A stretch of 32,192 bases of DNA from Thermoleophilaceae bacterium (GCA_013696425.1 JACCYP010000063.1:1-32192); one strand, 5' to 3'. Counted from the stretch's first letter, positions 20,889-32,192 are shown. The notes: a model not told the origin generated them from the sequence alone. Translations and numbers: made by a program.

Positions 20889-21776
20889 CTACAGCCGCGC
20901 GTCGAGAACCATCGCGGCGAAGAGCAGCGCGAGGTAGGCCAGCGAGAAGAGGTACAGCTGCAGCGCGGCGCTGCGCGTGGCCTCCTTCATCAGGCGGTAG
21001 GCGCCGTAGATGAAGATCGCGCCGAGGCTGACGGATGCGACCAGGTAGGGGATCCCCATCCCGCCCGCGCAGAAGGGCAGCTGCGAGACGGCGTACAGGA
21101 GCACGGTGTAGAGCAGGATCTGGCGGCGGGTCTCCTCTTCGCCGCGCACCACTGGCAGCATCGGCACGCCGGCCTTCGCGTACTCGTCCTTCATGAGTAG
21201 CGACAGCGCCCAGAAGTGCGGCGGGGTCCAGAAGAAGACGATCGCGAACAGGTAGATCGCGGTGCCTGACAGGCCTCCGGTTACGGCTGCCCAGGCCACG
21301 AGCGGCGGCACTGCGCCGGCGGCGCCGCCGATCACGATGTTCTGCGGTGTGGTGCGCTTGAGCCACAGCGTGTAGACGAACACGTAGCCGAGGAAGCCCG
21401 AGAACGAGAGCGCGGCGGCGAGCGGGTTCACCGCCACGGTGAGCAGCACCAGCGAGGCCGCCGCCAGCACGATGCCGTAGGCGAGCGCCGCGCGCGGGGC
21501 GACACGGCCCGAGGGCACCGGCCGGTCGGCCGTGCGCGTCATGAGCGCGTCGAGGTCGCGGTCGAGGTAGTGGTTCACGGCGCCGGCGCCGCCGGCGGAG
21601 AGCGCGCCGCCGAGGCAGGTGAGCAGCACCAGCGAGATCGAGGGATCGCCCGCGACGTACATCGTCGTGACCGTGGTGAAGAGCAGCAGCGACTGCACCT
21701 TCGGCTTGGTCATGTCGAAGTAGTCGCGCGCGACCTGGAAGCGGCGCGCGCCGGTTATCGCTGCGGCGGAGGTCAT
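20889..21776 (-). CDS. ctaB: Protoheme IX farnesyltransferase (heme O synthase)
   Basis: Contains DYFDMTKPKVQSLLLFTT...AVNHYLDRDLDALMTRTADRPVPSGRV, a UbiA-family CtaB/CyoE signature. The ATG overlaps the ctaA stop (ATGA). Confidence 0.93.
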   Translation of the reverse strand: MTSAAAITGARRFQVARDYFDMTKPKVQSLLLFTTVTTMYVAGDPSISLVLLTCLGGALSAGGAGAVNHYLDRDLDALMTRTADRPVPSGRVAPRAALAYGIVLAAASLVLLTVAVNPLAAALSFSGFLGYVFVYTLWLKRTTPQNIVIGGAAGAVPPLVAWAAVTGGLSGTAIYLFAIVFFWTPPHFWALSLLMKDEYAKAGVPMLPVVRGEEETRRQILLYTVLLYAVSQLPFCAGGMGIPYLVASVSLGAIFIYGAYRLMKEATRSAALQLYLFSLAYLALLFAAMVLDARL

Positions 21777-22771
21777 GCAGTCACGGAGTCTCTCTCAACG
21801 GGCGGCGAAGCGCCGACCGGTGACGGCACCTTGTACAGATTCAGGATGAGCCCGACGAGCGCGGCCCACAGCAGCGTGCCGACGGCCAGGTGGGCCACGA
21901 TCAGCACCTCGTACTCCTCGAGCCACACGTTCAGCGCGCCGAGCACCAGCTGCACGAGCAGGATGCCTCCGGCGGCGTGCGCGAGCGTCACCACGCGCGC
22001 GTTCGGACGGCGCCGCAGAGCGGTGACCACGAGCCAGATCACGGCGATGGTCGCCAGGTACACGAACACGCGGTGGGTGAGATGGATGTCCACGAGGCGG
22101 GACTCGCCGAAGGGCAGGAACGCGTCGTTGCAGGTGGGGAACTCGCGCCCGCAGGCGTGGTGGGCGCCGTCGCCGAGCTGGTAGTCGGCGCGCCCGTAGT
22201 TCTGTGTGCCCGCCATGTATCCGCCCGCCACGATCGTGCCGAGCACGAGGCCGGCGGAGGAAAGCGCGAGGCCCTTGAAGCGCGGGCCGCCGTCGGGGGG
22301 CTCGGCGCCGATCACGTCGGGCCGCGAGGAGCGCCAGATGTAGATCACGAGCGCGAGCAGCAGCATCGCGAGCAGCAGGTGCGTGGCCACGAGCGCCTCG
22401 TCGAGGTTCTCCTCGACCACCACGGCGCCGAGTAGTCCCTGGAGCACCACGAGCGCGGCGGCGGCGATCGAGGCGCGCACGATCCCGATGCTGCCGCGGT
22501 AGCGGCGGAAGGCGAGCACGGCGAGGGCGAACATCATCAGGCCGACGATGCCCGCCAACGTGCGGTGGGAGTACTCGACCACGGCGTTCAGGTCGAGGCC
22601 CGGGAGTACATCTCCCTCGCACAGCGGCCAGCCGCTGAAGCCGCTGCCGGCGGGTCCGCAGCCGAGGCCGGAGTCGCTCACGCGGACGATCCCCCCGAGG
22701 ACGATCAGGAAAAAGGTGGCTACGCCGGTCCAGAAGGCGAGTCGCCGGAAGCCAGGGGAGGGGGCACCCAT
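21773..22771 (-). CDS. ctaA: Heme A synthase (COX15/CtaA), form with both Cys pairs
   Basis: This is the C-terminal part of track ORF 21773..24688. It contains FLIVLGGIVRVSDSGLGCGPAGSGFSGWPLCEG...EYSHR...HHACGREFPTCND...THR. Start is ATG 22771, with GTG 22795 as an alternative. Confidence 0.88.
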   Translation of the reverse strand: MGAPSPGFRRLAFWTGVATFFLIVLGGIVRVSDSGLGCGPAGSGFSGWPLCEGDVLPGLDLNAVVEYSHRTLAGIVGLMMFALAVLAFRRYRGSIGIVRASIAAAALVVLQGLLGAVVVEENLDEALVATHLLLAMLLLALVIYIWRSSRPDVIGAEPPDGGPRFKGLALSSAGLVLGTIVAGGYMAGTQNYGRADYQLGDGAHHACGREFPTCNDAFLPFGESRLVDIHLTHRVFVYLATIAVIWLVVTALRRRPNARVVTLAHAAGGILLVQLVLGALNVWLEEYEVLIVAHLAVGTLLWAALVGLILNLYKVPSPVGASPPVERDSVTA

Positions 22772-22854
22772 CGAGCCGGAAAGGGTACCCGTCACGGCTA
22801 GACCCTGGGGGTCATGGCAGACGAAGGCTTCGGGCTCGACAACGGGTTCGGCGC

Positions 22855-24546
22855 CTAGGAGACGGGCTGGGCGACGGAGCCCTCGGCGGCGGTCGACTTC
22901 TCGACCTCCCGCCGGATGTCCTTCATGGGCTCGACCGAACGCACGAGCGGCACGACGTCGAAGTTGTTCTCCGGCGGCGGCGACTGCGTGAACCACTCGA
23001 GCGTGTTGCCCTGCCACGGGTCGTTGCCCGCCCTGCGGCCCTTCTTCAGCGAGCGGATGACGTTCACCACGGTGATGAGAACGCCGATGCCGAGCAGGAA
23101 AGAGCCGACCGTCGAGATGAAGTTGAAACCCTCCCAGCCGGCCGCCTCGGGATAGCGGTAGATGCGCCGCGGCATGCCCGAGAGGCCCGCCGAGTGCTGC
23201 ACGAGGAAGGTGAGGTTGAAGCCCGCGAACATCACCCAGAAGGACAGCTTCCCGAGCCCCTCGGAGAGCATCCGGCCCGACATCTTCGGGAACCAGTAGT
23301 AGAGCCCGGCGAAGATGCCGAACACGGTGCCGCCGAACAGCACGTAGTGCAGGTGGGCGACCACGAAGTAGGTGTCGTGCAGCTGCCAGTCGACGGGGAA
23401 GATCGCGAGGAGCACTCCGGAGATGCCGCCGATCACGAAGAGGGCCGGCAGGGCGGCCGCGAAGTAGAGCGGGGTCTTGAACACGATCGAACCCCGCCAG
23501 AGCGTTGCGATCCAGTTGAAGATCTTGATGCCGGTAGGCACCGCGATCGCGAACGAGCTCAGCATGAAGAACACCAGCACGACCGTGGCCGTCGGCGTCG
23601 TGAACATGTGGTGCGCCCAGACGAGCATCCCGAGGAACGCGATGGCCGCCAGGGCCGCCGCCATCGCCTTGTAGCCGAACATCGGCTTGCGGGCGAAGAC
23701 GGGCAGGATCTCCGAGATGATCCCGAAGGCGGGCAGGATCATGATGTAGACCTCGGGGTGCCCGAAGAACCAGAACATGTGCTGCCACAGCAGCGGGTCC
23801 CCGCCGCCGGTCGTATCGAAGAACGCGGTACCGAAGTGGCGGTCCGTGAGCAGCATCGTGACCGCGGCGGCGATCGAGGGCAGCGCCAGGATCAGCATGA
23901 AGGAGTAGATGAGGATCGCCCACACGAACAGCGGCATCCGGCCCCAGCCCATGCCCTTCGCGCGCATGTTGTGGATGGTCGCCACGAAGTTGATCGCGCC
24001 CACGAGCGATCCGAGGCCCGTGAGGTGGACGAGGAAGATCCACGCGTCGATGCCGCCCGACTGCAGGTAGGCGTCGTCGGAGAGCGGCGCGTACGAGGTC
24101 CAGCCGGCTCCCGGCGGGTCGAAGAAGAGCGAGGCGTAGAACACCAGCCCGCCGAAGATGAAGAGCCAGAACGAGAGCGCGTTCAGCTTCGGGAAGGCCA
24201 TGTCGCGCGCGCCGATCATCAGCGGCACGAGGTAGTTGCCGAAGCCCGCGAGCACCGGAACGATGAACAGGAAGACCATCGTCGTGCCGTGCATGGTCAG
24301 CAGCGCGTCGTAGGTGTGCGGATTGACCAGCGTGTTGTCCGACACCGCGAGCTGGAGGCGCATGAGGAGGGCCTCGACGCCACCGAGGATGAAGAACATG
24401 AAGGTGGCGACCAGGTACATGATCCCGATCTTCTTGTGGTCGGTCGTTGTGAGCCACGAGAGCCAGCCGGTCTGTGGCTCCTTGATCTGGCGGAGCGTGA
24501 CCTCGGGCGAGGAGGTGCCGGCGGGCGGTGGCGCGGTGGCGGTCAT
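22855..24546 (-). CDS. ctaD: Cytochrome c oxidase subunit I, A1-type (GHPEV motif), second paralogue
   Basis: A 563-aa ORF. It contains TTDHKKIGIMY, WFFGHPEVYIMILPAFG (nt 23749-23766 encode FGHPEV, verified by hand), WAHHMF and VVAHLHYVLFGG. Confidence 0.95.
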   Translation of the reverse strand: MTATAPPPAGTSSPEVTLRQIKEPQTGWLSWLTTTDHKKIGIMYLVATFMFFILGGVEALLMRLQLAVSDNTLVNPHTYDALLTMHGTTMVFLFIVPVLAGFGNYLVPLMIGARDMAFPKLNALSFWLFIFGGLVFYASLFFDPPGAGWTSYAPLSDDAYLQSGGIDAWIFLVHLTGLGSLVGAINFVATIHNMRAKGMGWGRMPLFVWAILIYSFMLILALPSIAAAVTMLLTDRHFGTAFFDTTGGGDPLLWQHMFWFFGHPEVYIMILPAFGIISEILPVFARKPMFGYKAMAAALAAIAFLGMLVWAHHMFTTPTATVVLVFFMLSSFAIAVPTGIKIFNWIATLWRGSIVFKTPLYFAAALPALFVIGGISGVLLAIFPVDWQLHDTYFVVAHLHYVLFGGTVFGIFAGLYYWFPKMSGRMLSEGLGKLSFWVMFAGFNLTFLVQHSAGLSGMPRRIYRYPEAAGWEGFNFISTVGSFLLGIGVLITVVNVIRSLKKGRRAGNDPWQGNTLEWFTQSPPPENNFDVVPLVRSVEPMKDIRREVEKSTAAEGSVAQPVS

Positions 24547-25415
24547 TCGGATCCGACCCCCTGCAGCCGCTGGAGGCCGAGCCCGACCTGGGCCGCCTTG
24601 ATGTCGGCGCCCTGCTTGGCCGCCCAGGCCCTGAACTCGTCCGGCGGCACGGCGCGCACGCGGGCGAGCATGTCGGCGTGGTTCTCACCGCAGAGCTCGG
24701 CGCACTGGCCCTTGTAGATGCCTGGCTTCTCGATCTTGAACCAGGTCTCGTTCGTGTAGCCCGGAGTCGCGTCGGCCTTGCCGCCGAGCGTCGGGATCCA
24801 CCAGGAATGGATCACGTCCGAGGCCGTGATGTTGAGGGTCACCGTCGTGTTCGTGGGCACGACCATCTCGTAGAAGGAGTACAGCCGCTCGGCCTCGCCC
24901 TTGAGGGAGCCCGGGTAGTCGAAGCGCCACATGTACTGCTGGCCGTTCACGTCGATCTCGAGTGCCCCATTGCCGGGCGGCTTCGGCTGGTCGCGGGTGG
25001 CGAACTGGACGCCCTCTGCGGCCTGGTAGCCGTTGGCGCTCGAGGCGGGCGGATCCGTGATGTCGCCGAGGTAGAGGAAGGTGAGCACGGTGAGACCGAC
25101 GAGGATCACCGCCGCGCCGACGGTCCAGCCGATCTCGAGCGGCGTGTTGCCGCGGATCTGCTCCGCGTCCGGGCCACCGCGGCGGGCGCGGTACTTCACG
25201 AGGCAGTAGATGATCGCGCCCTCGACCACGAGGAAGATCACGAGGCCGATGATCAGCGTGATGTTGTAGAGGAAGGAGATGTCCTTCCCGTTCTGCGAGC
25301 CCTGCTCGTCGAAGGTGAAAATGCCTCCGAAGGCCGCCGGGGCGGCCACCAGGAGCAGCAGCAGGGCGCCCGTCAGGGCAAGGGTCGTCCGTGAGGAGCG
25401 CAAGGCGGGCGGCAT
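24543..25415 (-). CDS. ctaC: Cytochrome c oxidase subunit II (CuA type), second paralogue
   Basis: A 290-aa ORF with a signal-like N-terminus, two TM helices and DVIHSWWIP...CAELCGENHADM. No CxxCH. Its stop overlaps the subunit I start (ATGA). Confidence 0.93.
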   Translation of the reverse strand: MPPALRSSRTTLALTGALLLLLVAAPAAFGGIFTFDEQGSQNGKDISFLYNITLIIGLVIFLVVEGAIIYCLVKYRARRGGPDAEQIRGNTPLEIGWTVGAAVILVGLTVLTFLYLGDITDPPASSANGYQAAEGVQFATRDQPKPPGNGALEIDVNGQQYMWRFDYPGSLKGEAERLYSFYEMVVPTNTTVTLNITASDVIHSWWIPTLGGKADATPGYTNETWFKIEKPGIYKGQCAELCGENHADMLARVRAVPPDEFRAWAAKQGADIKAAQVGLGLQRLQGVGSE

Positions 25416-25445: not shown

Positions 25446-26240
25446 TCAGCTGCCGGAGAACTCCGGCTTGCGCTTCTCGACGAACGCCAATGCGCCGTTC
25501 AGAAAGTCCTTCGAGCGCCCCAGTTCGTGCTGGATCGTGGCCTCGAGCTCGAGCTGCTCGTCCATGCGCGGGTAGAGCATCGCGTTCAGCGCCTGCTTGG
25601 TTCCCGCGTAGGAGCGCGTCGGGCCCGCGGCCAGCGCGCTCACCAGCGCGTTGGCCTCGTCCAGCAGCTTCTCGTCGGAGTAGACGCGGTTCACGAGGCC
25701 CCATTCGAGCGCCTTCGCCGCCTCGACCCGCTCGCCGAGCAGCGCCATCTCGAACGCCCGCGCCTTGCCCACCGCGGCGGGTACGAACAGGGTCGAGCCG
25801 CCGTCGGGCATCAGGCCGATGTTCACAAAGGCGAGCGAGAAGAAGGCCGACTCCGCCGCGAGCACGAGGTCGCCGCAGAGTGCGAGCGAGCAGCCGATGC
25901 CGGCCGCCGGGCCGTTCACGGCCACCACCACGGGCTTCGGGATGGTGCGCAGCCCGACGATGATCGGGTGGTAGACGTCATGCAGGCGCTTGCGGATGTC
26001 CGGGCCGCCGTCGTCGGCATCGGGCTCGAAGCCCTCGCGCAGGTCGGCGCCGGAGGAGAAGCCGCGGCCGGCGCCGGTGAGGAGGATGGCCCTGACCGAG
26101 GGATCCTGGGCCTCGCCGGTTACCACCGCGCGCAGCTCCTCGCCGAACTGGAGCGTCCACGCGTTGAGCGTCTCGGGGCGGTTCAGCGTGATGCGGCCGA
26201 TGCCGCCGGACTGCTGCCACTGCACGGTCTCGTAGCTCAT
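25446..26240 (-). CDS. Enoyl-CoA hydratase/isomerase (crotonase) family protein
   Basis: Contains ITLNRPETLNAW...ILLTGAGRGFSSGADL...VVAVNGPAAGIGCSLALCGD, crotonase oxyanion-hole motifs. Confidence 0.9.
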   Translation of the reverse strand: MSYETVQWQQSGGIGRITLNRPETLNAWTLQFGEELRAVVTGEAQDPSVRAILLTGAGRGFSSGADLREGFEPDADDGGPDIRKRLHDVYHPIIVGLRTIPKPVVVAVNGPAAGIGCSLALCGDLVLAAESAFFSLAFVNIGLMPDGGSTLFVPAAVGKARAFEMALLGERVEAAKALEWGLVNRVYSDEKLLDEANALVSALAAGPTRSYAGTKQALNAMLYPRMDEQLELEATIQHELGRSKDFLNGALAFVEKRKPEFSGS

Positions 26241-26299
26241 TGAAGCGGACCCTATCCTGGCCGGGTGTCTACGATGCTGTTCCTCGCGAAGCGGTAACA

Positions 26300-26947
26300 G
26301 TGCTCATCGACGCCCTCGACTGGACCGGTCACTCGGGCTTTCGCCTACGCGCCAGGGATGCGACCATCTACATCGATCCGTATCGCGTCGAGTCCGGCCC
26401 TCCGGCCGACCTGATCCTGATCACCCATGGGCACTACGACCACTTCTCCCCCCAGGACGTGGAGCGGCTCAGGCACGAGCGCACCCGGCTCGTGGCCCCG
26501 GCCGCCGTGGCCGAGCGGGTGGAGGGCAACGTGACTTCGATCGCCCCGGGCGAGGCGGTCGAGCCCGACGAGGCGCGTGGGGTCTTCGTGGCCGCGGTCG
26601 CCGCCTACAACACCTCCAAGCGCGACCCCGAGGGCAACCTCTTCCACCCGCGCGAGGCCGGCTGGGTGGGCTATGACCTGAACGTGCGCGGCGAGCGGCT
26701 CTACCACGCCGGCGACACCGACGTGATCCCCGAGATGGACTCGGTGACCGGCGTCGACCTGGCGCTGCTGCCCGTGAGCGGCACCTACGTGATGACGGCG
26801 GCGGAGGCCGTGGAGGCGGCCCGGCGGATCCAGCCGCGCATGGCGGTACCAATGCACTGGGGAGCCAACATCGGCACCGACGAGGACGCGGCGGTCTTCG
26901 CAGCGAAGGCGCCCGTCGAGGTGAGGATCATGAAGAGGAGCGCTTAG
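26300..26947 (+). CDS. Small MBL-fold metallo-hydrolase
   Basis: Contains ILITHGHYDHF (HxHxDH), HAGDT and a later His. I prefer GTG 26300 (MLIDALDWTGHSGFRL...) over track TTG 26240, which abuts the divergent crotonase start. The start is uncertain. Confidence 0.8.
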   Translation: MLIDALDWTGHSGFRLRARDATIYIDPYRVESGPPADLILITHGHYDHFSPQDVERLRHERTRLVAPAAVAERVEGNVTSIAPGEAVEPDEARGVFVAAVAAYNTSKRDPEGNLFHPREAGWVGYDLNVRGERLYHAGDTDVIPEMDSVTGVDLALLPVSGTYVMTAAEAVEAARRIQPRMAVPMHWGANIGTDEDAAVFAAKAPVEVRIMKRSA

Positions 26948-28704
26948 TGGACAACACCCGGCAAGCCATCCGGACGATGGCCTCGGAGGACCCGGAGCTC
27001 GCGGCGAGGCTGGTGCTCCAGGGGCTGCCGGCGGCGGCTGGGTCGATCGACGGCCCGCTCGCCTACGAGCTGAACGTCGAGGGGCTCGGCTCGTGGCTCG
27101 TGTGGTCGCGCAATGGGCAGAGCGGCGTGGAGGAGGGTGGCGCGGGCGACCGGCCGGTCGACTTCCGCCTCACCACCGATCCCGCGACGCTCGCGGAGAT
27201 GGCGGGCGGCGAGAGCGCCGTGAAGCTCATGCTCGGCGGGCGGGTGCGCATCCGCGGCAAGCGCCGCAAGGCGCTCAAGCTGCGCTCGATGGGGGACGCC
27301 GGCGCCGGCCTCGACGAGGTCGCGCGCGCGGGTGGGCGCGTGGATCCCGACCTGCTCTACCGCGCGCTGCCCTACCTCGTGCCGGCCGAGTGGACGAAGG
27401 GGCACTCCTTCAAGATCCTCCAGGAGATCGGCGGCGAGGGCGCGTGGCTGATCGACGTGCGCGACGGCGAGCGGATCGCCGTGACGCCCGGAGCCTCGAT
27501 GAACGGCAATGAGGGCATCTCCCACGTGAAGCTCTCCGGCGACACCTTCCGCCGCCTGCTCGCCCGTGAGCTCACCCCGCCCGAGGCGATGCAGCAGCAG
27601 CTCACGACGATCGACGGTCCGGTGGCGCCCGTCACCCTGCTCGGGCGCTGGATGGAGCGCGCCCAGGGCAACGACGACGCCGAGCTTGCCCGCGAGGCCG
27701 AGCAGCGCGAGATCCAGGCGCGCCGAGCCGGCTCCTGGGGCGCCACCATGAACGGCGACGGCTCGCGCGGCGGCCAGGGCGATCCCGGCCACGCCGCCGA
27801 GGGCGAGCGGCGCAAGGGCGGGGACCTCATGAGCTACCACCAGCTCTACGCGCTCTGGGAGAAGCAGAACTGGAAAGCGCACGAGCTCGACTTCTCGGTC
27901 GACAAGGAGCAGTGGCTGATCACCCCGCGCGAGGCGCAGCTCGACACGCAGTGGTCGCTCGGCGCCTTCTACGTCGGCGAGGAGCGGGTCGCCGCCGACC
28001 TCGCGCCGTTCGTGCTCGCCGCGCCGAGCGGCGAGATCGAGGCGTTCCTCTCCACCCAGCTCGTGGACGAGGTGCGCCACGCGGTGTTCTTCGACCGCTT
28101 CGGTGCCGAGGTGATGTGCCTCGGCGCGGATGACCTGCGCTCCCGCCTCGCGGAGATCGAGGCGACGATGCTGCGGCCCTGGCACGACGTGTTCGACGAC
28201 GGCCTGCGCGAGATCGCGCACCGGATCGCCGCCCGCCCGGACGACCTCCCGCTGTTCGTCGAGGGCATCACGACCTACCACATGATCATCGAGGGTGTGC
28301 TCGCCATGACCGGCCAGCGGCTGATCCTCAAATACATGGGCGAGCACGACATCTACCCCGGGTTCCAGAAGGGCTTCGGACTCGTGGAGCAGGACGAGCA
28401 CCGCCACATCGCGTTCGGCGTCAAGTTCCTGAAGGACGCCGTCGAGGAGGACCCCGCCCTCGGCAAGATCGTGCAGGGGCGGATCGAGGAGCTCGTGCCG
28501 AAGGCGATGAAGATCTTCGTGCCCCCCTACGCGGAGTCGGCGCGCGAGTTCACCTCCTATTCGAACACCTCGGGCGAGATCTACGGCTACGCCTACCGTG
28601 CGCTCAAGAGGCGGATGAACGTGATCGGCCTCGAGATCCCCGGACCCGAGGACCTGATGCCCGGCCCGATCGACGACGTGGCGGAGGCCCCCGCGCTGGC
28701 CTAG
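26947..28704 (+). CDS. Fusion protein: two SCP2-like lipid-binding domains plus an R2-like ligand-binding-oxidase-like (ferritin-like di-metal carboxylate) domain
   Basis: A 585-aa ORF. Residues about 10-115 and 125-240 each end in SCP2-like patterns (VDFRLTTDPATLAEMAGGESAVKLMLGGRVRIRGKRRKALKL and VKLSGDTFRRLLARELTPPEAMQQQLTTIDG). Residues 295-585 carry the RNR-R2 ligand set E345, E375-x2-H378, E449 and E484-x2-H487. Phe, not Tyr, sits at H378+4. The GTG start shares a base with the MBL stop (TAGTG). Confidence 0.8.
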   Translation: MDNTRQAIRTMASEDPELAARLVLQGLPAAAGSIDGPLAYELNVEGLGSWLVWSRNGQSGVEEGGAGDRPVDFRLTTDPATLAEMAGGESAVKLMLGGRVRIRGKRRKALKLRSMGDAGAGLDEVARAGGRVDPDLLYRALPYLVPAEWTKGHSFKILQEIGGEGAWLIDVRDGERIAVTPGASMNGNEGISHVKLSGDTFRRLLARELTPPEAMQQQLTTIDGPVAPVTLLGRWMERAQGNDDAELAREAEQREIQARRAGSWGATMNGDGSRGGQGDPGHAAEGERRKGGDLMSYHQLYALWEKQNWKAHELDFSVDKEQWLITPREAQLDTQWSLGAFYVGEERVAADLAPFVLAAPSGEIEAFLSTQLVDEVRHAVFFDRFGAEVMCLGADDLRSRLAEIEATMLRPWHDVFDDGLREIAHRIAARPDDLPLFVEGITTYHMIIEGVLAMTGQRLILKYMGEHDIYPGFQKGFGLVEQDEHRHIAFGVKFLKDAVEEDPALGKIVQGRIEELVPKAMKIFVPPYAESAREFTSYSNTSGEIYGYAYRALKRRMNVIGLEIPGPEDLMPGPIDDVAEAPALA

Positions 28705-28902
28705 ATCGCCGCATGGCGCCGTGGCCCAGGCGAAGGGCCTCGGCGTGCAGATCGTGCGGCGCTTCCTCGACCTCGAAGGGTTCCAGCAGGCCTCGGCCTG
28801 CAGTCCGGGCTGCTGGCGACGGGCCTCGTGATCGTGGCCGGCACGGTGGTGGGCGCCGCGGTGGACGAGCGCCGGCTCGCCGCTTCGCCGCTCGATTTGA
28901 AA

Positions 28903-29105
28903 AACAGCGAGCAATAGGGGCGAGGGACGGGCGGTTTGCGATTGCTCGCGAGGCGCTTGTGGCTACGCGCCACCGGTGCCGGCCCGTTTGCAGTTGTGCC
29001 CCGACAGAGGGGTTAACTGCAAACGGGCGCGCTGGCGTGGCCACATTGCCGCAACGATCCGTGGACAGCCGGATCCGCCCGGGCCACCCCTTATCGCTCG
29101 CTGTT
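28903..29105. mobile_element. About 200-bp non-coding element bounded by imperfect terminal inverted repeats (MITE-like), containing nested palindromes
   Basis: The left end is AACAGCGAGCAATAGGGG (28903-28920). The reverse complement of 29087-29105 is AACAGCGAGCGATAAGGGG, giving one mismatch and one indel. A third copy of the GCGAGCAAT motif lies in inverse orientation at 28941-28949. I see no target-site duplication and no transposase. Confidence 0.35.
28983..29030. repeat. Palindromic element copy B: perfect 13-bp arms CCCGTTTGCAGTT / AACTGCAAACGGG with an inner CCCC/GGGG stem
   Basis: Read directly from the sequence. It belongs to the same family as 20828-20875 (identical 16-mer at 29015-29030). 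A degenerate half-copy, GGGCGGTTTGCGATTG, lies at 28929-28944. Confidence 0.7.
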
Positions 29106-29136: not shown

Positions 29137-29838
29137 CTAGTCCTCGAGCACCTTGCGCTTCGCCGTCTCGAACTCGGCATCGGTGAGCACGCCGGCGTCG
29201 CGGAGCTTCACGAGCTTCTCGAGCGAGGCGAGCGTGTCGTCCACATCGTCGCCGGCGTGGGGCTTCGCGATCGAGGCGGTGTCGGGGGTCATCGGCGTCG
29301 GCATCTGGCCGGCCGCCTGCTGGTACTGCTGGGCCACCTCCATCGCGGCCTTGATCTGGTCGGTGAGGCTGCCGGTGCCGCCCTGCATCGCGTTCCAGCT
29401 GGAAACGTCGATCTGAGCGCCCGGATGCGTCTGCTGCAGCTGGTTGAGGTCAACGCCGGCGTCCGTGGCCGCCTTGATCGTGGCCTCGGAGAAGTCCCCG
29501 AATTGCGCGGGCTGCGCGCTCACCGACGTGGCCGGTGCGGCCGTGGGTGCCGGCGGCGGGTCGGGCTCGGGCGGGGGCGCCGAGGACACGCGCGGGCCGG
29601 CCCAGTCGATCTCGACGTTCGAGGGGTCCGAGCGGTCGATGGTCGCGCGCAGCGTCTGGCCGGGCGTGGGCCAGTTGGCGCGGTCCTTCGGCACGTCGTC
29701 CACGTGCACGGTGCTCGCGGGCACGTTCGGTCCGCGGACGGTGAGCGACGCGCCGGAGTCCGAGAACGACAGCACGTAGGCCTCACCCTGGACCGGATCC
29801 TTCATTCGGCGCCCGAACAATCCCACGGGCGCAGTCAA
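29137..29838 (-). CDS. Hypothetical protein with a Pro-rich linker and a C-terminal SHOCT domain
   Basis: A 233-aa ORF. The C-terminus LASLEKLVKLRDAGVLTDAEFETAKRKVL matches the SHOCT short C-terminal domain pattern. The start is either TTG 29838, abutting the Crp stop, or ATG 29805. Confidence 0.7.
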   Translation of the reverse strand: MTAPVGLFGRRMKDPVQGEAYVLSFSDSGASLTVRGPNVPASTVHVDDVPKDRANWPTPGQTLRATIDRSDPSNVEIDWAGPRVSSAPPPEPDPPPAPTAAPATSVSAQPAQFGDFSEATIKAATDAGVDLNQLQQTHPGAQIDVSSWNAMQGGTGSLTDQIKAAMEVAQQYQQAAGQMPTPMTPDTASIAKPHAGDDVDDTLASLEKLVKLRDAGVLTDAEFETAKRKVLED

Positions 29839-30492
29839 TCAGCGCGCGGCGCGTTCCGCCAGTCCAGGTATGTCGAGCACCCGCGTTTTCCCCCGCGCGA
29901 GCTCGACGTTGCCGCGCTTCTCCTCGTCGCGCAGAACCTTGTTCACGGTGGCGCGGCTGGTGCCCGCGAGGCCGGCGATGTCCTCCTGGGTGAGCGGGAC
30001 GAGCGCCTGCCCGTCCTCCTCGTATATCGCGGCCAGCTCGGACAGGCGCTTAAGCACGCGCCGGTCGCTCGGCACGTACAGCGCCTCGACGAGATGACGG
30101 GAGAGGCGCTGCACCTGGGCCGCGAGGATCGCCACGAGCACCTCGTTTGTCTGTGGGTTCTCACGTCGCAGCCGTTGCACGTCGAGCTGGTGGACCGAGC
30201 GGGTCTCGGCTGGCTCGAGCGCCGCCACGGTGGCGCTGCGGGCGGCGCCCTGGGACACGAGCGCCAGCTCCCCGAACACCTCGCCCGGGCCGAGCACGGC
30301 GAGGATGGCGGTGTCTCCGAGCGGCGTGGTCGAGCGGACCGCGAAGCGACCCTTGGCGATCAGGTGGAGGGTGTCCGCGGGGTCGCCCGCGTGGAAGACG
30401 ACCTCGCCACGGCTGAAGCTGCGCCGCCGGGCCGTCGCAAGCACCTGGCGGACCTGCTCCTCGGGTACTCCCGCTAGCAGCGGCCAGTCCAC
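29839..30492 (-). CDS. Crp/Fnr-family transcriptional regulator (cNMP-binding type, cysteine-free)
   Basis: Contains FSRGEVVFHAGDPADTLHLIAKGRFAV...GPGEVFGELAL...RSATVAA (cNMP-binding beta-roll) and LTQEDIAGLAGTSRATVNKVLRDEEKRG (HTH). The 217 aa contain no Cys, so it is not an Fe-S FNR. Confidence 0.9.
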   Translation of the reverse strand: MDWPLLAGVPEEQVRQVLATARRRSFSRGEVVFHAGDPADTLHLIAKGRFAVRSTTPLGDTAILAVLGPGEVFGELALVSQGAARSATVAALEPAETRSVHQLDVQRLRRENPQTNEVLVAILAAQVQRLSRHLVEALYVPSDRRVLKRLSELAAIYEEDGQALVPLTQEDIAGLAGTSRATVNKVLRDEEKRGNVELARGKTRVLDIPGLAERAAR

Positions 30493-30556: not shown

Positions 30557-31420
30557 GTGGGAACCGCCAGAAAGCTCGCAATCGCGGCCGTCGCAGCCGG
30601 CGTCCTCGTGCCTCCGCTGCGCAGGCGGCTGCGCCTGCCCGCGCCCGTGGTGTCCGTCCTGGCGTGGCAGGCCCCATACGCGCTCACACTCGCCCTCCCT
30701 CGCACGCGCGCGCGGGACGCGGGTGTGTATGCGCTGCAGATGTGGGCGTACTTCGCGCATTACCAGATGCCGGCCGACGATCCGGACAACCTGCTCGAGC
30801 GCCTGAAGGTCCGGTATCCGATCCGGGCGGACGAATGGATGGGCCGCGGCGAGGCCCCCACCATCCGCCTGCAGAAGCGCATCGGCTCGAGCGACTCGGT
30901 TCGCCCGCATGACTTCGCGCTCGCCGCTGTGCACTGGGCGTGGTTCTTCTATCCGCACGCAACGGTCGCCTACACGTTGTGGAAGCGCCCCGAGCAGTTC
31001 CCGCGTGCGGCCACGCTCATGGCGGGAACCTTCGACGCCGGCCTGCTGGTGTACTGGCTCGTGCCGACCGCGCCACCGTGGTGGGCCGCGGCGAACGCCG
31101 ACATGCCTCCGGTCCGGCGGATCATGACCGAGGTGGGTGAGCAGGTCTGGGGCCGCGCCTGGGCGCCGATGTTCGCCTACATCGGCGGCAATCCGTTCGC
31201 CGCGATGCCCTCCCTGCATTTCGGCACCTCGGTCACCGCCGCCCACATCCTCTCGCGCATCGGGCGCAAGCAGGGCGCGGTCGGCTGGGCCTACGCCGGA
31301 ACGCTGGGCTTCGCGCTCGTCTATCTCGGCGAGCACTACGTGGTGGACCTCCTGGCGGGCCTTGGGCTCGCCGAGGGTGTGCGGGCAGGCGCACGCCTTC
31401 TCCATCTCGATCCTCCCTGA
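30557..31420 (+). CDS. PAP2-superfamily integral membrane protein (PAP2_3 / inositolphosphotransferase-like)
   Basis: A 287-aa multi-TM ORF with ...AAMPSLHFGTS... and ...YLGEHYVVDLLAG..., corresponding to the SxH and HxxxD motifs of PAP2 phosphatase/phosphotransferases. Confidence 0.65.
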   Translation: MGTARKLAIAAVAAGVLVPPLRRRLRLPAPVVSVLAWQAPYALTLALPRTRARDAGVYALQMWAYFAHYQMPADDPDNLLERLKVRYPIRADEWMGRGEAPTIRLQKRIGSSDSVRPHDFALAAVHWAWFFYPHATVAYTLWKRPEQFPRAATLMAGTFDAGLLVYWLVPTAPPWWAAANADMPPVRRIMTEVGEQVWGRAWAPMFAYIGGNPFAAMPSLHFGTSVTAAHILSRIGRKQGAVGWAYAGTLGFALVYLGEHYVVDLLAGLGLAEGVRAGARLLHLDPP

Positions 31421-31436: not shown

Positions 31437-31700
31437 CTAGGTTCGTAGGGCCGCGAGCTTGTCCTCGCGGCTGAGCGCCTTGAACCGCGCTTCCTCGCGC
31501 ATGGCCGCCGACGCGTCCTCGAGCTCCCACCTCGCGGCGAGCTCCACGGGCAGTCGGCTGCGCGTGTAGCGCGCGCCGCGACCGGCGGAATGCGCCGCCA
31601 AGCGCTTCTCGACGTCGTACGTCCAGCCCGTGTAGAGGCTGCCGTCGCCGCAGCGCAGGACGTACACGAAGGCGGCGCGCTCGGTCACGAGATGGACCAT
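31437..31700 (-). CDS. GIY-YIG nuclease superfamily small protein (UPF0213-like)
   Basis: An 87-aa ORF containing FVYVLRCGDGSLYTGWTYDVEKRLAAHSAGRGARYTRSR, a GIY...YxG...R...H/E pattern. Confidence 0.85.
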   Translation of the reverse strand: MVHLVTERAAFVYVLRCGDGSLYTGWTYDVEKRLAAHSAGRGARYTRSRLPVELAARWELEDASAAMREEARFKALSREDKLAALRT

Positions 31701-31753: not shown

Positions 31754-32192
31754 GTGGCCGAGCCGCAGCCACCGGTCGACGAGCTCGAAGAGCAGGCAAC
31801 CGAACTCGCCGACCAAGAAACCGAGGACATCACCGAACGCGGGCTGGCGCTGCTGCGCAGCCCACGCCGCCTCGGGCTCCTCGTGCTCGCCCTTGTCGCG
31901 ATCGTCGTCGCGATCTACTACTTCGTGCCAAAGCTCGCCGGGCTCGAGGGCACGCTGCACAAGCTCGGCGACGCCACCTGGTATTGGATCGTGGTTGCGT
32001 TCGGCTTCTGGCTCGGTGCCGCCATCTGTCTCATGCTGCTGTTCCGCGCGGCGGTCGGCGGTGGCCCCGACGAGGAGATCCGAAAGCGCCTCGACGTCGA
32101 CTCCTCGCTCCAGATCACGCTCGCAGGACTTGCCGCGACCGCGCTCTTCTCTGCCGCCGGCGCCGGCGGCCTCGCGCTGATGTACTGGGAGC
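31754..32192 (+). CDS. Flippase-like / lysylphosphatidylglycerol-synthase-TM-region (UPF0104) family membrane protein, partial; runs off the right edge
   Basis: My own translation in the frame of GTG 31754 gives MAEPQPPVDELEEQATELADQETEDITERGLALLRSPRRLGLLVLALVAIVVAIYYFVPKLAGLEGTLHKLGDATWYWIVVAFGFWLGAAICLMLLFRAAVGG...LQITLAGLAATALFSAAGAGGLALMYWE. It is absent from the track because it has no stop. Track ORF 31749..32180 is the wrong frame (Arg/Ser/Pro junk). Confidence 0.7.
   Translation, partial: MAEPQPPVDELEEQATELADQETEDITERGLALLRSPRRLGLLVLALVAIVVAIYYFVPKLAGLEGTLHKLGDATWYWIVVAFGFWLGAAICLMLLFRAAVGGGPDEEIRKRLDVDSSLQITLAGLAATALFSAAGAGGLALMYWE

Follow-up and report, generated by a model that had tools for sequence, protein, structure and literature searches.

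The 32,192-nucleotide stretch of Thermoleophilaceae bacterium DNA analysed here (GCA_013696425.1, JACCYP010000063.1:1-32192; hereafter the window, G+C content ~69%) raises the question of whether one of its genes truly joins lipid-carrier domains of the SCP2 type to an R2lox-like di-metal oxidase in a single protein, and what such a joining says about the function of R2lox. R2lox proteins are a structurally well-studied Mn/Fe family, for which cofactor assembly, O2 activation and formation of a Val-Tyr ether crosslink have been described, and their physiological substrate and reaction are still debated. To our knowledge, the characterised R2lox proteins are all single-domain proteins of ~300 amino acids. 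The first-pass annotation of the window read the locus as an uninterrupted 585-residue frame with three parts, two SCP2-like domains, a linker and the oxidase; the recomputed open reading frame is the same, and domain, PDB, fold and conservation evidence agree with this reading. We regard it as nearly certain that tandem SCP2 modules and an R2lox-like oxidase occur here in a single polypeptide, organised as follows.

26947..28704, plus strand: whole fusion open reading frame, SCP2 - SCP2 - linker - R2lox-like oxidase, 585 amino acids, GTG start
26947..27297, plus strand: SCP2 module 1, residues 1-117 (Pfam SCP2 at residues 40-114, AlphaFold2, Foldseek)
27310..27663, plus strand: SCP2 module 2, residues 122-239, divergent duplicate of module 1 (hhalign, orthologous Pfam matches, AlphaFold2)
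27664..27828, plus strand: conserved helix (residues ~244-260), then Gly-rich flexible linker (residues ~263-294) (AlphaFold2 confidence, conservation)
27829..28641, plus strand: R2lox-like ferritin-fold di-metal carboxylate oxidase, residues ~295-565 (phmmer against the PDB, Foldseek, NCBIfam, invariant residues)

The catalytic half carries a complete R2lox-type di-metal site. In an alignment of 50 full-length fusion homologs, on which all statements on residue conservation rest, the six metal ligands proposed earlier, E345 (in the motif YVGEERV), E375, H378, E449, E484 and H487, were all invariant, and so were V348 and Y444 at the R2lox ether-crosslink positions and F382 at the position of the radical tyrosine of ribonucleotide reductase (RNR); the residue numbers originally assigned to these positions proved exact. 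The ligands follow the pattern E / E-x-x-H / E / E-x-x-H, with Glu and not Asp in the first position. In the phmmer alignment to 4hr0, E345, V348, E375 and H378 correspond to E69, V72, E102 and H105 of GkR2loxI, and Y444, E449, E484 and H487 to its Y162, E167, E202 and H205, the ligand and crosslink residues as numbered in PMC10867098; GkR2loxI also has Phe at the position of F382 (H378+4). The best phmmer matches in the PDB were R2lox structures (6qrz, 4hr0 and its mutants, 7qbp, 3ee4 and 7qbk; E 1e-18 to 1e-15), as against E 1e-5 for chlamydial R2c, and the identity of the domain to solved R2lox is ~24-26%. An AlphaFold2 model of the full-length protein, built on 50 homologs, reached a mean predicted local distance difference test (pLDDT) score of 87.2 and a predicted template modelling score (pTM) of 0.84, and Foldseek ranks 1-34 in the PDB were all R2lox (template modelling score normalised to the target ~0.65-0.78), with R2c next. 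Five NCBIfam R2lox models (NF006198-NF006202) matched with E 4e-34 to 3e-18, compared with E 2e-6 for the RNR beta model NF005550 (26.8 bits, cut-off 309), and the earlier placement with R2lox rather than with RNR R2 is thus borne out.

The N-terminal half had been assigned to SCP2 on the basis of C-terminal sequence patterns, and this assignment is supported, clearly for module 1 and on balance for module 2. Module 1 is matched by Pfam SCP2 (PF02036) at residues 40-114 well above the gathering score (E 8e-10, 39.4 bits against 21.3), and it was modelled at pLDDT ~90 with an alpha/beta SCP2-like topology. For module 2, the orthologous segment exceeds the gathering score of Pfam SCP2 in 8 of 10 homologs, and homolog segments also match the SCP2-clan families Alkyl_sulf_C and SCP2_2. 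When the profiles of the two modules were compared with hhalign, the probability was 91% and E 9e-7, indicating an internal duplication of the SCP2 module. When residues 1-252 were modelled alone (pLDDT 90.9, pTM 0.85), the same helix-strand pattern was repeated at 1-117 and 122-239. Foldseek against the PDB ranked the alkylsulfatases Pisa1, SdsA1 and YjcS first, each through its SCP2-like C-terminal domain, followed by yeast, human, rabbit and mosquito SCP2, and then by UbiJ-SCP2 and archaeal SCP2. On balance, module 2 is a divergent SCP2-type module, and the N-terminal half consists of tandem SCP2-type modules, putatively lipid-binding and packed as a single unit. Invariant residues are more numerous in module 2 than in module 1. 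The two halves are joined by a helix at residues ~244-260, with a mean identity of 70% across related loci, and by the Gly-rich linker that had been noticed earlier, which is predicted to be disordered (pLDDT <50 at residues 266-282). Near the junction, R238, Q240, G241, D243, E246, R249, E250, Q253 and R260 are invariant.

The fusion frame has no internal stops. Its GTG start overlaps the TAG stop of an upstream metallo-beta-lactamase (MBL)-fold gene (TAGTG), a GAGGAG Shine-Dalgarno sequence lies 6 nucleotides 5' of it, and the start is supported by homologs that are conserved from their first residues. A search of ~5.8 billion proteins gave 1513 matches to the fusion, and the best 120, to which the details refer, are 567-604 amino acids long, share 58-86% identity and all contain both Pfam domains; where a source is named, it is a Thermoleophilaceae metagenome-assembled genome (MAG). 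A scan of GTDB with one genome per species gave 175 stretches confirmed by tblastn, and all locus counts given here, including the identity of the helix, concern the best 80 of these 175, which come without exception from Thermoleophilia MAGs labelled Thermoleophilaceae, Solirubrobacterales, Solirubrobacteraceae or more broadly. In 80/80 loci a single frame runs from query residue 15 or earlier to residue 560 or later, which settles the initial concern about a lost stop or a frameshift. With 1513 homologs, full-length copies in the best 120 and a single frame at every locus, the fusion is under selection; its design is kept across many actinobacteria of soils. A 656-amino-acid open frame lies antisense to the fusion (26944-28914, minus strand) without supporting homology; it is an antisense frame of the kind common in high-GC DNA, and it was dismissed as coding because all homology evidence is on the plus strand.

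SCP2 and R2lox-like domains have also been joined in the opposite order. An exhaustive search based on 50%-identity representatives gave 1790 relatives of the fusion, among them stand-alone proteins of ~300 amino acids (37-44% identity) and, in uncultured Actinomycetota, many permuted forms of ~400-490 amino acids, in which the R2lox-like domain precedes a single SCP2 domain at the C-terminus. The permuted order was verified in P0233, P0240, P0299 and P0307 and in 8 of 10 further representatives, and the P0240 family has 780 matches in Actinomycetota MAGs. Among 60 representatives, fused and stand-alone, the active-site signature E-V-E-H-F-Y-E-E-H is kept in 51. In a crude, midpoint-rooted neighbour-joining tree of the oxidase domain, without support values and used qualitatively only, the N-terminal fusions formed their own clade, and the C-extended forms fell into at least two clusters interspersed with stand-alone proteins. 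Opposite orders of the domains mean that they were joined at least twice, and the recurrence of joining in both orders points to a functional partnership (a Rosetta-stone signal). The SCP2 domain of the permuted fusions matched module 1 with 97% and module 2 with 95% probability in hhalign, values that do not discriminate between an origin from module 1 and one from module 2. At two loci the permuted fusions are flanked by aldehyde dehydrogenase and short-chain dehydrogenase genes, neighbours that would suit a route from alkane through alcohol and aldehyde to acid; examples of permuted fusions are L082 6001-7470 and L083 6001-7401 (P0358, P0471; P0240 family).

Other architectures were found among the relatives. 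P0292 (731 amino acids) has an alpha/beta-hydrolase followed by an R2lox-like domain, P0307 (752 amino acids) has an N-terminal region of ~300 amino acids without identity before its R2lox-like and SCP2 domains, and in P0353 (753 amino acids) an N-terminal stretch of ~500 amino acids without an assigned family precedes a tandem-SCP2-like region (residues 519-750). A minority of the stand-alone relatives (P0287, P0300, P0336, P0348, P0268 and P0317) have lost at least one metal ligand or the Val/Tyr pair; their signatures, for instance GVDHYHEEH, SAHHFFEGH and EAEHFSEEH, suggest sub-lineages with changed or lost chemistry. The neighbours of the stand-alone P0226 and P0229 were uninformative on contigs of 1.2 and 2.9 kb.

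In solved R2lox structures a long-chain (hydroxy) fatty acid is bound in a channel at the metal site, and the authors of that work have speculated that aliphatic substrates of low solubility are brought to the enzyme by a partner or by the membrane (PMC9314684). According to the account that PMC9314684 gives of Kumar et al. 2020, the R2lox genes of haloarchaea lie in clusters with those for ferredoxin and sterol carrier proteins, and their expression is induced on hexadecane. Degradation of C10-C22 alkanes has been reported for GkR2loxI, and an alkane monooxygenase function was claimed for it in 2024 (PMC10867098), on rather weak evidence; the statement of the first-pass annotation that the substrate of R2lox is unknown is thus partly outdated. 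Its suggestion that the architecture is undescribed held in so far as no description of an SCP2-R2lox fusion, in either order, was found in the literature searched. However, hundreds of such proteins are in the databases under automatic names ('ribonucleoside-diphosphate reductase beta chain' or 'SCP2 sterol-binding domain-containing protein'), and a link between R2lox and SCP at the level of gene clusters had, by the same account of Kumar et al. 2020, already been published for haloarchaea.

With moderate confidence, we propose that the SCP2 modules capture a long-chain hydrophobic substrate, which is then oxidised with O2 in the channel of the oxidase; in this scheme we infer the lipid binding, the hand-over between domains, the identity of the metals, the reaction and the substrate. 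The fusion product would be a soluble three-part enzyme, its halves joined by the helix and a flexible linker of ~30 residues. The SCP2 modules would draw a hydrophobic long-chain compound (an alkane, fatty acyl chain or membrane lipid, for instance) out of a membrane or droplet and bring it to the hydrophobic channel in which the oxidase domain takes its substrate. There the reduced metal site, which by analogy with R2lox probably holds Mn/Fe, would activate O2 and oxidise the aliphatic chain by two electrons, most likely through hydroxylation. The substrate could be an exogenous alkane or fatty acid, an option that may be compared with Thermoleophilum album, the type species of Thermoleophilia, which grows only on C13-C20 n-alkanes (PMC6741124). 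The neighbourhood, including PAP2_3, flippase-like and cox/haem A genes, suggests as another option an endogenous membrane or isoprenoid lipid. The genes concerned are as follows.

20889-21773, minus strand: ctaB (UbiA family), haem A cluster, divergent upstream
21776-22858, minus strand: ctaA, haem A cluster, divergent upstream
22855-24546, minus strand: coxI, haem-copper oxidase, divergent upstream
24543-25415, minus strand: coxII, haem-copper oxidase, divergent upstream
26240..26947, plus strand: MBL-fold metal-dependent hydrolase (Lactamase_B_3), 235 amino acids (PF13483, E 9e-27)
29137-29838, minus strand: SHOCT-domain gene, between fusion and PAP2_3 gene
29839-30492, minus strand: Crp/cNMP-binding (Crp-type) regulator gene, between fusion and PAP2_3 gene
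30557..31420, plus strand: PAP2_3-family membrane lipid phosphatase/phosphotransferase (PF14378, E 9e-25)
31437-31700, minus strand: GIY-YIG nuclease-domain gene, between PAP2_3 and flippase-like genes
31769..32192, plus strand: start of a flippase-like (LPG_synthase_TM) gene running off the window end (tblastn; exact start uncertain)

The MBL gene, whose product is PRK00685-like but below the NCBIfam cut-off, lies directly upstream of the fusion on the same strand in 45 of the 80 loci, and the two genes are probably co-transcribed and translationally coupled in the window because the TAG stop of the first overlaps the GTG start of the second. Alkylsulfatases combine an MBL fold with an SCP2-like domain, and here SCP2 and an MBL protein of another subfamily (Lactamase_B_3) are encoded by probably coupled but separate genes. 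Downstream, within 6 kb and on the same strand, a PAP2_3 gene occurs in 55/80 loci, mostly 80-900 nucleotides away, and a flippase-like gene in 52/80. The 140-amino-acid flippase-like fragment of the window, for which no Pfam match was found with the fragment alone, is 46% identical by tblastn (E 2e-27) to an LPG_synthase_TM / TIGR00374 protein of the L081 locus. This downstream block is kept in the window but interrupted by the SHOCT, Crp-type and GIY-YIG genes; a search of the 80 related loci gave none of the three. Cox-like genes stand upstream on the opposite strand, coxI-like in 56 and coxII-like in 61 loci. In Solirubrobacterales-type loci (L040-L080) the fusion lies 100-500 nucleotides from a much more divergent cox pair (CoxI ~40% and CoxII ~30-36% identical to those of the window), so the adjacency to an oxidase operon persists though the oxidase differs, and this adjacency could be either synteny or meaningful. 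An enoyl-CoA hydratase gene is found upstream on the opposite strand in 31/80 loci, and a FAD_binding_4/ALO oxidase gene within 6 kb downstream on the same strand in 23/80. A thioredoxin reductase gene lies within 6 kb downstream on the same strand in 50/80 loci, ~2-3 kb away, and also at L081 (9379-10401). This flavoprotein was considered as a dedicated reductase and rejected, being an ordinary thioredoxin reductase (TIGR01292, above cut-off), and its proximity may be plain synteny; thioredoxin is named among the possible host-derived cofactors for alkane hydroxylation by GkR2loxI (PMC10867098). A scan for promoters and terminators around the fusion gene gave nothing above chance.

Several points weigh against the mechanism proposed here. 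All five NCBIfam R2lox models score below their curated cut-offs (at best 118 bits against 194 for NF006200), as they also do with the closest stand-alone relatives, and we therefore file the oxidase as an R2lox-like divergent sister clade and not as a curated equivalog; at the level of sequence, the protein shows each R2lox feature tested except these family score thresholds. With such scores and the low identity to solved R2lox, its substrate and chemistry could differ from those of R2lox. The window's own copy of module 2 falls below the Pfam SCP2 cut-off (12.5 bits, E 0.19). The evidence for GkR2loxI consists of a modest loss of substrate in crude lysates, and a ligand double mutant lost little activity (PMC10867098). 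No ferredoxin, rubredoxin or dedicated reductase gene was found adjoining the fusion. Moreover, trxB is a housekeeping gene, which weakens an operon reading of the downstream block and suggests that part of the gene order is lineage synteny, and conservation of the neighbourhood carries limited weight because the genomes with N-terminal fusions belong to a single class. For these two reasons we read the neighbourhood as a hint at membrane-lipid biology but do not count it as proof that the genes form an operon.

The alternative that survives best keeps the chemistry and changes the substrate: the enzyme would act on an endogenous isoprenoid or membrane lipid rather than on a growth substrate, in envelope or respiratory-chain lipid metabolism. 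By analogy with UbiJ and Coq9-Coq7, the enzyme might for example hydroxylate the tail of a phospholipid, a prenylated quinone or a farnesylated intermediate of haem. The divergent haem-copper oxidase/haem A cluster, with its UbiA-family ctaB, the frequent cox-like genes upstream and the conserved PAP2_3 and flippase-like genes downstream all fit such a role, and the N-terminal half has UbiJ-SCP2 among its fold matches. However, UbiJ matches no better than generic SCP2, the cox adjacency may be plain synteny within one class, the oxidase has no tie to Coq7-type or other quinone hydroxylases and matches R2lox best, and the permuted fusions occur in a different context, next to aldehyde and short-chain dehydrogenases. 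We consider this alternative unlikely.

Less probable still is that the SCP2 modules are a membrane-docking, oligomerisation or regulatory (lid) element, with the oxidase taking its substrate directly. The full-length pTM, as a property of the model, suggests a fixed arrangement rather than a swinging one, the well-conserved helix after module 2 and the richness of that module in invariant residues would fit an interface, and stand-alone relatives carry the same active-site signature without any SCP2. On the other hand, repeated recruitment of SCP2 at either end of the oxidase is more easily explained by ligand handling, and the SCP2 domains of SdsA1 and MFE-2 are generally described as binders of hydrophobic ligands.

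That the protein is an RNR small subunit (R2, NrdB), the name it bears in most database entries, is very improbable. Pfam Ribonuc_red_sm (PF00268) does match residues 298-522 just over its gathering score (35.0 against 33.6 bits), in line with the automatic name. However, the radical tyrosine is replaced by Phe382, the R2lox matches are far stronger in the PDB, in NCBIfam and among the best 34 Foldseek hits, the Val/Tyr crosslink pair typical of R2lox is conserved, a fusion to lipid-binding domains has no rationale for RNR, and R2lox is known to be misannotated as RNR R2 (PMC10867098). Finally, an artefact joining two adjacent genes through a lost stop or a frameshift has a negligible chance, for while the database holds short 'stand-alone' tandem-SCP2 proteins such as P0147 (263 amino acids), the frame is continuous in 80/80 loci from independent assemblies, more than 120 homologs are full-length, the junction region carries invariant residues, and the apparent split at L081 consists of three frameshifted pieces of the fusion gene (frames 3, 1 and 2). 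At that locus (L081 5001-6766), P0147 and the following 235-amino-acid gene are pieces of the broken fusion, the frameshifts probably being an assembly error or marking a pseudogene. A genuine split version, with tandem SCP2 and oxidase as neighbouring genes, was also sought, and its best candidate, P0147, was rejected as this frameshifted copy; short N-terminal-only 'stand-alone' matches are mostly fragments.

Capture and oxidation of a long-chain substrate by a single polypeptide is thus the reading we prefer, and the first impression that the fusion is an informative clue to R2lox function gains support from its conservation and from joining in both orders, which favour a long hydrophobic substrate. 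Such a covalent fusion, natural, conserved and evolved more than once, gives genomic evidence of an independent kind that the molecules on which this lineage acts are long, hydrophobic and in need of a carrier. What is new is the covalent fusion of SCP2 to an R2lox-like oxidase; the gene-level association, the hypothesis of a long-chain aliphatic substrate and the database entries themselves were known, and the whole amounts to a useful, fairly strong genomic clue. The surprise is tempered because the haloarchaeal clustering and the alkane-hydroxylase proposal had already been published. More tentatively, and with rather less than even confidence, SCP2/R2lox-like fusions of both orders might represent an unrecognised, widespread family of Actinomycetota, Mn/Fe oxygenases in which a tethered SCP2 domain fetches the substrate, a long-chain alkane or the tail of a lipid. 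If so, the Thermoleophilia fusion could be a long-chain alkane/lipid hydroxylase missed by standard annotation, and its fused carrier could hold on to, and make open to direct identification, the physiological substrate that has been sought for the wider R2lox family since 2009. In practical terms, the true substrate may co-purify with the SCP2 modules of the fusion, which offers a defined complex for structural work on substrate entry into the R2lox channel; the fusion also flags hundreds of database entries that wrongly bear the name of a ribonucleotide reductase beta chain.

Compared with solved R2lox, the oxidase domain is alike in its ferritin/R2 fold, ligand set and first-position Glu, and also in Val at E+3, Tyr at E-5 and Phe at the radical-Tyr position; it differs in its low identity (~24-26%) and in ~294 extra N-terminal residues, made up of two SCP2 modules and the linker. 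The haloarchaeal R2lox/SCP cluster, as far as the account in PMC9314684 goes, associates the same two families with a proposed long-chain alkane link, whereas its genes are separate, archaeal and accompanied by ferredoxin, and here the domains are fused, SCP2 is duplicated, the host belongs to Thermoleophilia and there is no adjacent ferredoxin. The permuted fusions share the active-site signature and SCP2 homology with this protein and differ in reversed domain order, a single SCP2 domain and neighbouring aldehyde and short-chain dehydrogenase genes. In the alkylsulfatases SdsA1 and Pisa1 (MBL, dimerisation and SCP2-like domains), in MFE-2 and in SCPx, an SCP2-like module sits on an enzyme for long aliphatic chains, as is proposed here, and those of SdsA1 and MFE-2 have been described as binding or recruiting hydrophobic ligands. 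Their catalytic partner is, however, a hydrolase or thiolase, whereas here it is a di-metal O2-activating oxidase, and SCP2 is duplicated and N-terminal. The MBL protein of the window is encoded separately, is a small Lactamase_B_3 and lacks the dimerisation domain of the alkylsulfatases; an identity as an SdsA1-type alkylsulfatase was considered and rejected, as only the SCP2-like part matches and the MBL domain is a separate 235-amino-acid gene product. In the systems of UbiJ (SCP2) with the Ubi hydroxylases and of Coq9 with Coq7, the latter a ferritin-like di-iron enzyme, an O2-dependent hydroxylase receives its very hydrophobic substrate from a lipid-binding protein, a concept shared with the fusion. 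No specific sequence relation of the fusion to Coq7 or UbiJ was found beyond shared folds, and while UbiJ and Coq9-Coq7 work as non-covalent complexes on prenylated quinone precursors, here the SCP2 modules and the oxidase are covalently fused.

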